Below, one piece after another: positions 23,641-59,337 of a stretch of 64,000 bases of DNA. How positions within the stretch are numbered: the first letter of the stretch is position 1; every line of letters starts with the position of its first letter. The DNA lies in IMG/VR virus record IMGVR_UViG_3300020459_000007. One strand, 5' to 3'. Source of the DNA: an uncultured virus (IMG/VR IMGVR_UViG_3300020459_000007) (taxonomy: Duplodnaviria; Heunggongvirae; Uroviricota; Caudoviricetes). The position numbers and the translations under genes are program-made. The notes under the pieces were generated by a model. The model made no database searches and was not told where the DNA came from. It saw nothing but the letters and a program-made list of their open reading frames with translations.

Positions 23641-24342
23641 TTATATAGCCAGTTCTTCCTCCCATTTCTCTATAAATATACCCCTTTCCTCTAGTTGAGA
23701 CAGTGCATAGTCCATAATCACCACAATTCTGTCGTGTTTACCGTTATGTTGTGCCCAATGCTTGTCATGATCATGGAATGCAAAGAGTTCTCCTACCTTC
23801 CATGTTCTTTTACGTCCACGTACACTCAACCATGCACCATCATCTTCAATGATAGGGTAGTGGAGTCGTAAAGAATCTATGTCACCGCTATGTGGATTGA
23901 TCTTTGTACCTGGCGATAGCTTACTTATAGTACATGACTTAAGTAACTGTCCATCTACATCTTCTTTGATAGCATTGTAGAATGTAGGACACAATTGTTC
24001 CATACTCTCAGTCAATTTCGGTAGTACTTCTTGTACCTTTTCTATCGTAGTATTAAATAACTCAACGAATGATACCATCTCGCTGAGTTCAAAGTCTTCT
24101 TCTGTTGCTGTAGTACCTACAGGATTAAGTGGCATAGGGATCACTGTCCATGACCCATCCCATAGTTGTACTCTACCCATATTTCTATCTTCTACCCACT
24201 TGTCAAGCACCCACTCGTTTAAGATGGGTTGATTGACCTCCACAAATTTTATGATCTCTGGAATGATCTGTCTATATTGATTTTTGAGATTACGAAATGA
24301 GGATAGATCAGAGATCACATCCTCTTGCCAAATTTTTCTCAT
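23641..24342 (-). CDS. Aspartyl/asparaginyl beta-hydroxylase-like oxygenase
   Basis: SKLSPGTKINPHSG...LRLHYP...WKVGELFAFHD...H...RIVVIMD. Confidence 0.85.
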   Translation of the reverse strand: MRKIWQEDVISDLSSFRNLKNQYRQIIPEIIKFVEVNQPILNEWVLDKWVEDRNMGRVQLWDGSWTVIPMPLNPVGTTATEEDFELSEMVSFVELFNTTIEKVQEVLPKLTESMEQLCPTFYNAIKEDVDGQLLKSCTISKLSPGTKINPHSGDIDSLRLHYPIIEDDGAWLSVRGRKRTWKVGELFAFHDHDKHWAQHNGKHDRIVVIMDYALSQLEERGIFIEKWEEELAI

Positions 24343-24345
24343 ACT

Positions 24346-24540
24346 CTAAACGTTTATTATATTCGGACAACCTTTACTTCCGTGTACTGGACATTCTACA
24401 CCTTCTTTGGTGTGATTGCAAGTCATCTTCTTTACCTTCCCAGTCTTCTCGTCAACCTTAGGTGCTGGTTCATTACCATGTTTACGACCATCGGGATCCT
24501 CCATCGTAGGCATCACCTCGACAGTCCCACTTACTTTTTT
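24346..24540 (-). other. Probable -1 programmed frameshift site and 62-codon extension frame (VSGTVEV...CNHTKEGVECPVHGSKGCPNIINV)
   Basis: GAA AAA AAG TAA puts the slippery A_AAA_AAG (24540-24534) at the stop of the upstream gene; hairpin at 24528-24493; open -1 frame to TAG at 24346. Confidence 0.65.
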
Positions 24541-25724
24541 TCAGCAATACTCCTGAATGCTGCGAAAGATAATGATTCTTTCTTAGCTGTCTTCGCTGAA
24601 TCTTTAAAGTCCTTCTCACTTGGTGCACCTTTGTCACCCTTACTACGCATTTTCTCACCACGCTTTCTCTTAGCATGGATGTTAGCATAGAGACCCTTAC
24701 CTTCTTCAACAGTCTCTTCTTTCTTTACGTCATCCTTTTCGTACCACTTACCATCACCATCAGAGTCTTGCCAGAACTTACCCTTGCCTTTCTTTTTCTT
24801 CTCTTCACCAACGACTTCGGATCTTTCTTCCTGTGCCTTCTTCTTCTTACTACCTTTACCGTATCCTTCTGACTTGATTGCAGGTTCTACGAAAGTCTGT
24901 CCGTGTGGTCCTGCAGGTAGATCAGTGTTTACTTCTTCTTGATCTATGTTACCTTCTGGTCTAGTAACATGCTCATGAACTGCTTCTTTAGTAATAGTAA
25001 TGTCTTCAACAGCGACATTTTTCTCTAGTCCATGCTCAAACATAACATCATAGTGTGTTACAGTTCCATCTTCTAGAAGAGTATGCTCTCCTGATAGACA
25101 GTTACCTGTGCCCCACTCTGCATGCTCTACCTTAGTAGCACATGAATGCTTTACCTTTTTTATTTCTGGTTTACCTTCTTCACCCTTTGGTTCTGCAAGT
25201 TTCATACCTGGTGCATCACCACCACCTACACCATCAGCACCCTTGCCTTTAATGTCTGTGTTACCTATGGTTGCGGAGTAATCATATCTCCATGTCTCTT
25301 TAACACTCTTGAACTTAGTGTTTAAACTTGTCTCAGCAGCTAATTGTGCTAGTGACTTCTTTTCCTCGTGATGGCTCATCTTATCTTTTTTAGGGTCTGT
25401 TGGAATAACTTGTTTAACTGCAACTGTACCTGAAGGTTTCTGTACCTTCTGACCAGGCGTTAATGACATAACATACTCACGATACGCATCAGTTCCAATC
25501 TCGAATACTTCTTTGATGTCTGTAATCCAAGTGCGGAAGGTTGTTTCTTCAGCAGTAAGACACAGCACATAGTTAGGACCTCGACGTAAAATCTTACCTA
25601 CCTGACCAGCTTCAGTTAAAACCCACTCTCCTTTTTTATAGACTTCGTTCTTATAGAACTTGTCACGAGTGATGTTTTTTTCCGCGGCTTGCGTTTTCTT
25701 TGCAAAGTCAGAGAAAGATTTCAT
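24531..25724 (-). CDS. Modular late protein, probable internal virion/polyprotein
   Basis: Start MKSFSDF resembles the T4 capsid-targeting sequence; SH3-like segments; multiple xxE|K sites; TATAAATA at 25749-25756. Confidence 0.8.
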   Translation of the reverse strand: MKSFSDFAKKTQAAEKNITRDKFYKNEVYKKGEWVLTEAGQVGKILRRGPNYVLCLTAEETTFRTWITDIKEVFEIGTDAYREYVMSLTPGQKVQKPSGTVAVKQVIPTDPKKDKMSHHEEKKSLAQLAAETSLNTKFKSVKETWRYDYSATIGNTDIKGKGADGVGGGDAPGMKLAEPKGEEGKPEIKKVKHSCATKVEHAEWGTGNCLSGEHTLLEDGTVTHYDVMFEHGLEKNVAVEDITITKEAVHEHVTRPEGNIDQEEVNTDLPAGPHGQTFVEPAIKSEGYGKGSKKKKAQEERSEVVGEEKKKKGKGKFWQDSDGDGKWYEKDDVKKEETVEEGKGLYANIHAKRKRGEKMRSKGDKGAPSEKDFKDSAKTAKKESLSFAAFRSIAEKK

Positions 25725-25748: not shown

Positions 25749-25756
25749 TATTTATA
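25749..25756 (-). promoter_or_regulatory. T4 late promoter TATAAATA
   Basis: Exact consensus, 25 nt upstream of the likely ATG. Confidence 0.75.
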
Positions 25757-58427: not shown

Positions 58428-59078
58428 TCACAAACTTCTGAGAAATGCGTCGAACGCGGCGACCTTCCTCTCAGCAAGTTCTTGGGGTGAGGGTGCATTA
58501 TCAAGGGATGCCTTGATAGCCTCGATTTGTGCTTCTTTAATCTTACCATCGACTAAAGCCCATTCTTTACCTTCCATAATACCTTCAACAAAAGCATCAG
58601 GTGCGGAGGGGTCTGCTACTATATCAGCAGCAGTAGAAAGAATGAAGTCATCGGCGACTATACTGGTTGTGCCCTCTTTTTTAAGAGAACCTAACCCGCG
58701 TGAAGAAACACCGAGTTGTACCCCTTCCTCAAGCAAGTTCTTTGCGATCTTACCCATAGGGGTTTCTAACAACTTTGCCTTACCTATGAAGTTTCTACCT
58801 TCAGGGTAAAGTTCAACGATCTTGTGTGAAACACGATCTAAGTTAACGGTAGGACCTTCTGGATGACCTAACTCACCAAGTGCTCTCCCGCGTTGGATGA
58901 ACTCTTCGTTGTACTTTCCCACCTCACGGTTCATGGTATCGAACTTGTACATTCTACCATTACGGTTGGTGATCTCAGTCTGTAGGAAGATACCTTTGAT
59001 ATAAGTTGACTTCTTACCGTCTTTGTCTTCGGTAAGAACTTCTATATCATTGTTCTGTTCCGTTATCAGTCTCATCAT
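58428..59078 (-). CDS. gp21: Prohead protease (T4 gp21)
   Basis: NRNGRMY, GELGHP, GVSSRGLGS, DIVADPSAPDAFV. Confidence 0.96.
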   Translation of the reverse strand: MMRLITEQNNDIEVLTEDKDGKKSTYIKGIFLQTEITNRNGRMYKFDTMNREVGKYNEEFIQRGRALGELGHPEGPTVNLDRVSHKIVELYPEGRNFIGKAKLLETPMGKIAKNLLEEGVQLGVSSRGLGSLKKEGTTSIVADDFILSTAADIVADPSAPDAFVEGIMEGKEWALVDGKIKEAQIEAIKASLDNAPSPQELAERKVAAFDAFLRSL

Positions 59079-59337
59079 CGTTTTCCTCTGATTCGTTTTC
59101 AGCATTGCGGTTGATTACTTCCGCAGTTTCATCTTCTGATGCTTCTCCCTCTGGAGGTAATCCAGTTGGTTTGCCATCATCAGGGACGTGCGGAAACATT
59201 TTGTTCGCAATGTCCAATTTACTTGTGTCCACTGCAGCAGCAGCTTTCACTTGTAGCATATCTTTGAGTTTGTCTAAGGCATCTGCCCTATCATTGTCCC
59301 AAAGTAAATCAACGATTTCTCGTTCTTGTGTTGCCAT
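59047..59337 (-). CDS. Small acidic prohead-core-like protein (gp67/68 position)
   Basis: Between gp20 and gp21; acidic tail; ATAAATA at 59359-59365. Confidence 0.7.
   Translation of the reverse strand: MATQEREIVDLLWDNDRADALDKLKDMLQVKAAAAVDTSKLDIANKMFPHVPDDGKPTGLPPEGEASEDETAEVINRNAENESEENDDETDNGTEQ

Follow-up and report, generated by a model that had tools for sequence, protein, structure and literature searches.

In E. coli dnaX and in IS3-family elements such as IS911, ribosomes shift into the -1 frame at the heptamer A_AAA_AAG, stimulated by a Shine-Dalgarno sequence 9-14 nt upstream (PMC5009743) and by a hairpin 5-8 nt downstream (PMC4066793). The slip mechanism itself is textbook knowledge. 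In the tail chaperone shift of phage lambda (G/GT) and in the capsid and tail extensions of T7, T3, A2 and A118, a minority of the ribosomes reading a late gene extends its product by a C-terminal domain. In the carboxysome gene csoS2, shifting governs the proportion of two forms of a modular protein that presumably lies within an icosahedral shell (PMC5009743). The available text of PMC5009743 gives the G-T shift as absent from T4 and makes no mention of cyanophages; that of PMC10885494 contains no cyanophages and refers to a paper on the lack of a shift in T4-like tail chaperones. The word “frameshift” was absent from the main text of PMC3037559 and PMC5082946, and the literature searched yielded no description of a programmed -1 shift in T4-like marine cyanophages and no report of the site analysed here, which cluster tables of genome-wide frameshift surveys could list. 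At the end of a late gene of such a phage, termed gene A below, the heptamer, Shine-Dalgarno sequence, stem-loop and conserved -1 frame of the dnaX/IS3 cassette were all found. The locus differs from dnaX and IS3 in being a late gene of a T4-like phage. Its shift would extend the product past the zero-frame stop, like the minority arrangement of Chlorobium dnaX (PMC5009743), and the extension differs from the lambda/T7-type cases in being a Cys/His knuckle instead of an Ig-like domain. The csoS2 case is more distant, since the protein is unrelated, the shift truncates it, and no upstream Shine-Dalgarno sequence is involved (PMC5009743).

The window, which is the whole 64,000-nt stretch of DNA analysed, belongs to a T4-type cyanophage resembling P-HM1 and P-HM2. 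It encodes replication, head and tail genes of T4 type; no tRNA genes were found in it, and a search of the genome collection gave a single match that was judged to be chance. Gene A (24531-25724, on the minus strand like all features of the locus given below) encodes a Lys/Glu/Gly-rich modular late protein of 397 aa and 44 kDa. It showed 61% identity over 93% of its length to the genes of P-HM1 (PHM1_163), P-HM2 and MED4-213, and its neighbours in these Prochlorococcus phages were the same as in the window. The Pfam search matched no domain in gene A, the PHROG match was phrog_22379, and ESM Atlas returned only the protein's own unnamed clusters. The first 130 residues matched the cytidylyltransferase family of cyanophages in its C-terminal part, with residues 24-134 matching only positions 214-326 of phrog_395. 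The name “possible cytitidyltransferase” in the P-HM1 and P-HM2 annotation was rejected for gene A because the CTP_transf_like domain (PF01467) sits in the upstream gene (26303-25752). The cytidylyltransferase of the window was split into this catalytic part and a C-terminal part (25724-25330) that starts gene A and has its own late promoter and leader, whereas the two are fused in most cyanophages and lie within one 1021-aa frame in S-RIM2. The rest of gene A consisted of short Lys/Glu-rich modules that were shuffled between homologs, whose lengths ranged from 317 to 500 aa. Identification as a tail chaperone, capsid or tail-tube gene was also rejected, because there was no such Pfam or PHROG match and those genes lie at 55.9-63.6 kb.

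The likely start of gene A is the ATG at 25724, 25 nt 3' of TATAAATA, which matches the T4-type late promoter motif (25749-25756). The window contained 4 such matches versus 4.3 expected by chance, so the match in the window alone was not significant. Among 56 distinct homologs with a start and upstream DNA, however, 52 carried TATAAATA within 60 nt upstream of the start; 10 of 67 rows with an unmatched start pattern were left out of this count and of the N-terminal tree below. During infection by P-HM2, the gene A ortholog PHM2_164 and the following PHM2_165 were classed as late and the next two genes as middle (PMC5082946). The late character assigned to the gene in an earlier sequence-only reading of this DNA was thus supported by the promoter motif and by the transcript classes. 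Scans for sigma-70 promoters and terminators stayed at chance level.

Gene A ended in GAA AAA AAG TAA, which placed the slippery heptamer A_AAA_AAG (24534-24540) in phase and directly before the zero-frame stop TAA (24531-24533); in homologs the stop was TAG or lay one codon later. The -1 frame (24346-24534; phrog_32143), referred to here as the tail, ran for 62 sense codons to a TAG (24348-24346) located 3 nt before the ATG of the next gene at 24342. It contained a Cys/His knuckle of the pattern C-x8-C-x2-H-x4-C (24367-24420), a putative metal site whose C, C, H and C were invariant in 16 aligned tails. The gene end, the phase of the heptamer, and the length, end point and Cys/His stretch of the -1 frame agreed with the sequence-only reading, which had proposed a programmed -1 shift at this place. 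Just upstream of the heptamer the -1 frame was closed by TGA (24543-24541), so that the only ways into it are the heptamer and an internal start. Within the window, 4 of 61 stop-to-stop frames of at least 150 codons contained an in-frame A_AAA_AAG, and only that of gene A combined a gene end, an upstream GGAG and a -1 frame of more than 7 codons. Among the homologs of gene A, 11 further heptamers were seen inside the gene; they opened -1 frames of 2-8 codons and were taken as chance. An A8 run caused by misassembly, raised earlier as a possible objection, was excluded: the run was A7, one bridging contig from each of four runs (2 DNA and 2 RNA libraries, with contigs that drop rare variants) crossed it without an indel, and the homologs were concordant. 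The tail was listed as a separate CDS in P-HM1 (PHM1_164) and P-HM2 (PHM2_165), and its frame was intact yet unannotated in MED4-213 (L294:301-465); the nearest record carried one copy of the tail.

Directly after the tail lay an Asp/Asn beta-hydroxylase gene (24342-23641). Hydroxylase-like genes were numerous in the window (21456-18074, 12315-11152 and 32663-29052), with several frames resembling 2OG-Fe(II) oxygenases and a tryptophan-halogenase-like gene. A virion structural protein (phrog_613; 23395-22532) had a weak C-terminal Ig-like match that was in frame without a shift.

The arrangement at the end of gene A was conserved in three scans. In the gene-first scan (the best 80 of 240 relatives), 24 of the 80 contigs ended before the stop; 55 of the remaining 56 ended in GAA AAA AAG-stop, L055 did likewise after an unrelated internal break, and the heptamer and the -1 register were present at all 56 gene ends. 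The break in L055 (~2810) lies inside the gene A homolog, is absent from close relatives and is probably an assembly error. In the tail-first scan (the best 80 of 88 relatives, many on contigs of the gene-first scan), the heptamer was in the -1 register in 80/80 viral loci, followed by an immediate stop in 76 and by TCG TAG in 4. Of the best 80 of 88 metagenome relatives, 73 fitted the search pattern and all of these carried the heptamer: 65 with an immediate stop and GGAG, 5 with CAG TAG and GGAG, and 3 with an immediate stop and AGGAC. The other seven comprised one with the heptamer, one cut by the contig end, and five in which the knuckle only was found, in frame in longer proteins; metagenome loci with the full tail and upstream DNA had the heptamer and the -1 register in 74/74 cases. 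When pooled, 102 distinct contexts (-45 to +75) carried GAA AAA AAG in 102/102, always with the tail in the -1 frame, a count of related sequences and not of independent events. Heptamer conservation, named in the sequence-only reading as a check, was accordingly borne out, and extended to P-HM1, MED4-213 and P-HM2. By codon usage, GAA AAA AAG is expected for 13% of Glu-Lys-Lys, and 4 of 17 internal Glu-Lys-Lys used it.

The informative facts of conservation among these sequences were the moving stop, the indels of three and the codon pattern. In 9 loci, and likewise in P-HM2 (CAA TAG), the stop had moved by one codon with the heptamer unchanged, while P-HM1 and MED4-213 had TAG directly after it. 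An ATG within the tail followed the heptamer at 20 nt in 73, at 23 nt in 26 and at 17 nt in 3 of the 102 contexts, so that the spacer indels were multiples of 3. In the -1-frame codons 4, 5 and 7, which precede this ATG, the second position was invariant and the third variable. This comparison of homologs demonstrated that the -1 frame is under purifying selection, starting at the heptamer. In ten reference loci of cyanophages from other clades, no A_AAA_AAG cassette was seen at the gene end, and the signal thus looks limited to the P-HM1/P-HM2-like clade. No protein with gene A and tail joined in frame over their full length turned up in the tail-first and metagenome scans or in the search for longer proteins containing the tail, a weak test in which none of 7 candidates reached an E value of 0.01 or better.

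Upstream of the heptamer, a Shine-Dalgarno-like AGGAG (24550-24554) was located at a distance of 9 nt. The sequence-only reading had described the signal as a heptamer with a 3' hairpin and had overlooked this element. GGAG was found 8, 9, 12 or 15 nt upstream in 67/67 distinct contexts from viral contigs, versus 3.6% elsewhere in the gene, and was kept in three codon registers. The spacing was 9 or 12 nt in 54 of these contexts and 8 or 15 nt, just outside the 9-14 nt range of known stimulators, in 13. The Phe-Arg-Ser class, to which the window belongs, had GGAG in 18/18 cases where codon usage predicts less than 1%; the Trp-Arg classes carry little weight, since their amino acids alone would give GGAG about half the time. 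On a tree built from the 125 N-terminal residues in 57 rows, the spacing or register class had to change 6 times, which may reflect module swapping. In three metagenome loci (L250-L252), AGGAC replaced AGGAG, and no other hairpins observed were as strong as theirs (-24 to -26 kcal/mol), which might point to compensation between the two stimulators.

Downstream, a conserved hairpin (24486-24526) began 7 nt after the heptamer, with an outer stem formed by 24526-24519 and 24493-24486. The hairpin at 24528-24493 proposed earlier can form, but it is a minor fold: the pair probability was 0.12 for its GGGA/UCCC stem versus 0.88 for the outer stem of the other fold, which is the one kept in homologs. 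Taken alone, the hairpin of the window was modest (z -1.9 and -1.55), and 32 of 39 distinct sequences folded downstream with z below -1.5. Across 20 loci, folding peaked at the site, with a mean of -18.1 kcal/mol (z -3.4) versus -4.8 to -10.0 at 22 other offsets. When a structure of 17 pairs derived from these folds was applied to the homologs, 84.7% of the cells were paired versus 32-55% when it was slid, and 43 cells were two-sided versus 16.8 in shuffles. Two-sided changes occurred in 4 of the 17 pairs, a count that 85 of 500 shuffles also reached, and RNAalifold kept 8 pairs, one of them with a two-sided change. Covariation in these alignments is thus present and modest, with stem and coding constraint entangled. 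Rfam gave no match over 24200-24800 at E up to 1.

The proposal of a programmed -1 frameshift was supported by the conserved heptamer, the register of the tail and the two stimulators, and dnaX/IS3-type programmed -1 frameshifting at the end of gene A is, on these grounds, very probable. Ribosomes on the late mRNA of gene A would pair with AGGAG through their anti-Shine-Dalgarno sequence and pause both beside the stop and at the 3' hairpin, and some of them would slip from AAA AAG to AAA AAA. The unshifted product would be the protein of 397 aa and 44 kDa, and the shifted product a protein of 459 aa and 51 kDa ending in the Cys/His knuckle. The anatomy of the signal and its conservation can be read directly from the aligned homologs, whereas the occurrence of shifting and its rate are what we infer from them.

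The main rival concerns the internal ATG (24511-24513), from which the tail could be translated as a separate small gene by reinitiation or coupling, the heptamer being merely the end of gene A. The ATG was invariant in 73/73 contexts with the 20-nt spacer and a GAG codon stood two codons before it in 72/73, the usual context being GAG-GTN or GAG-ATN. Gene callers use this ATG, databases list the tail as a protein of 49-56 aa (annotated in P-HM1 and P-HM2), and PHM2_164 and PHM2_165 fell into different late sub-clusters, E and D (PMC5082946). Such a gene leaves much unaccounted for, however: the invariant GAA AAA AAG, the 3-nt indels of the spacer, the codon pattern before the ATG, the upstream GGAG, and the constancy of the heptamer under a moving stop. 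Seven -1-frame residues precede the internal Met, and the tail peptide of the window that begins with them, after the two Lys, is VSGTVEVMPTMEDPDGR. As a ribosome-binding site, the GAGG is too close to the ATG (0-3 nt), mostly paired within the hairpin, reduced to GAGA in 20/73 and not present in P-HM2. In place of the window's second ATG, other sequences have CTG, TTG, CTA, TTA or ATC. Independent translation, which the sequence-only reading had raised against itself, is therefore disfavoured by the -1 codon pattern and the 3-nt indels, while the invariant ATG speaks for it; as the sole explanation it is very unlikely. A combination of both, with the long form produced by frameshifting and some free tail peptide started at the internal ATG, is somewhat less improbable and is partly counted within frameshifting itself. 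Several IS3-family elements make OrfB besides OrfAB. In the window's hairpin the ATG lies in an internal loop and is unpaired with a probability of ~0.8, which together with the GAG(G) before it would suit initiation, but pairs of the hairpin (35-57 and 40-52, kept in 39/39), and possibly the protein, also hold the ATG and the GAG constant.

The long form could also arise if the polymerase, and not the ribosome, slipped on the run of seven A. All 102 contexts read G-A7-G, which is one constraint beyond the strict need of the heptamer and would fit such slippage, yet efficient slippage of bacterial polymerase has been described for runs of 9 (PMC5009743), the Shine-Dalgarno-like element and the hairpin stand at ribosomal distances, and the run was A7 in the two RNA-library contigs, which do drop rare variants. 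We regard transcriptional slippage as even less probable than a separate gene. Least credible of all is that the tail is a relic, left by a fused domain in decay, or a product of misassembly; the internal frame break of L055 could be cited for this, whereas the same arrangement recurred in three cultured phages and 102 contexts with an open, conserved tail and without an indel in four runs.

The knuckle of the tail may bind metal. The AlphaFold model of the tail had a pLDDT of 60, a pTM of 0.21 and no regular structure; Foldseek of this model against the PDB gave 0 matches, and ESM Atlas gave no usable match for the tail. In S-SM2, Bellamy and many other records, the knuckle also forms an in-frame part of larger proteins. 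The proteins P0015-P0032, which are large, phage-like and acidic or basic, often contain two copies, and the knuckle frequently follows a Glu directly. The gp186-like gene at the syntenic position in S-RIM12, S-CAM8, S-RIM2, P-SSM7 and 33 viral loci started with MLSFKALSE-(K/R)K-TKVKINP, followed by the knuckle in several of them. When this single-frame start was compared by hhalign with the zero-frame end and -1 start of gene A, the alignment crossed the junction with a probability of 69-73% and a junction score of 19.4, whereas none of the 32 control windows scored above 11.9; in hmmsearch, the single-frame genes were matched over the knuckle only and not across the junction. These comparisons are only suggestive that the single-frame genes of other cyanophages share the junction and knuckle. 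The gp186-like genes and the T4-GC119 proteins occupy the same locus as gene A and its tail or have the same modules (a leader-like start, Glu-Lys-Lys, a short beta-like stretch and the Cys knuckle), but carry them in one frame and, in the 10 reference loci, without an end-of-gene heptamer. The gp186-like genes usually overlapped the upstream stop as TRATG (L082:4007, L085:3929, L086:6274 and L172-L208) and so stood in -1 register to the gene ahead of them, with the frame change falling before the leader and not after it. In a divergent lineage (L156, L157, L160 and L162, ~2500), the heptamer was kept with the stop one codon later and GGAG at 15 nt, and the -1 frame comprised 170-180 residues with 10 Cys and, at its end, a T4-GC119 module of 56-68% identity to PSSM7_194. 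T4-GC119, T4-GC190 and T4-GC537, families that neighbour gene A or share modules with it, are given as detected in virions (Table S8 of PMC3037559, where S-SM1 is named for T4-GC190); P-HM1 and P-HM2 were not among the virion proteomes given in the available text of that study.

A possible role of the shift is suggested by a likeness to the T4 internal head proteins IPI/II/III, Alt and the prohead core proteins, which consists of the late promoter, a leader resembling the capsid-targeting sequence, an L/I-X-E motif and the gp21 encoded in the window (58428-59105); it is a likeness of motifs and not of demonstrated sequence homology. To our knowledge, no frameshift occurs in the T4 genes for IPI/II/III, Alt or the prohead core. 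The leader MKSFSDFAKK (25695-25724) resembles T4 (NC_000866) ipI MKTFKEFTST and ipII/III MKTYQEFIAE over 10 residues only. Targeting in T4 rests on residues 4 and 7, and gp21 cuts after L/I-X-E (PMC9026906); hydrophobic residues occupy these two positions in the leader, with F/L in 57/57 gene A homolog starts found, and the Glu of the leader is at residue 15 instead of 10. At the other end, Ile-Ala-Glu (24540-24548) forms a gp21-type motif and candidate cleavage site directly before the two Lys codons, and I/L/V-x-Glu(GAA) stood there in 102/102 contexts. The slip site does not explain this Glu, since the heptamer needs only the last A of its codon. Against head cargo, the density of [ILV]-x-E in the sequence of gene A (10 in 397, or 2.5 per 100 residues) exceeds that of non-structural controls (1.1-2.2) only slightly and is half as high as in gp22. 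Gene A would, in this tentative reading, which on present evidence is less likely than not, be a modular internal head protein that enters the head by means of its leader and is then a substrate of the gp21-type protease. A cut at the Glu before the slip site would free the tail as a 64-residue peptide, so that only shifted molecules would release the knuckle peptide, or in one lineage a piece of 170-180 residues with a known virion module, and the number of tail peptides released by gp21 would be set by the shift rate. Other cyanophages have the same module in a stand-alone gene with its own leader, and recoding would therefore, if gene A is head cargo, have replaced a separate gene for stoichiometry.

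If programmed frameshifting at the end of gene A is true, a complete three-part bacterial -1 cassette operates in T4-like marine cyanophages, and internal Shine-Dalgarno stimulation works on the ribosomes of their hosts. The annotation would be corrected, with PHM1_163/164 and PHM2_164/165 each becoming one gene with two products. The shift is directly testable in P-HM2-infected Prochlorococcus MED4, and it would offer a starting point for explaining the modular late proteins that cyanophages encode.
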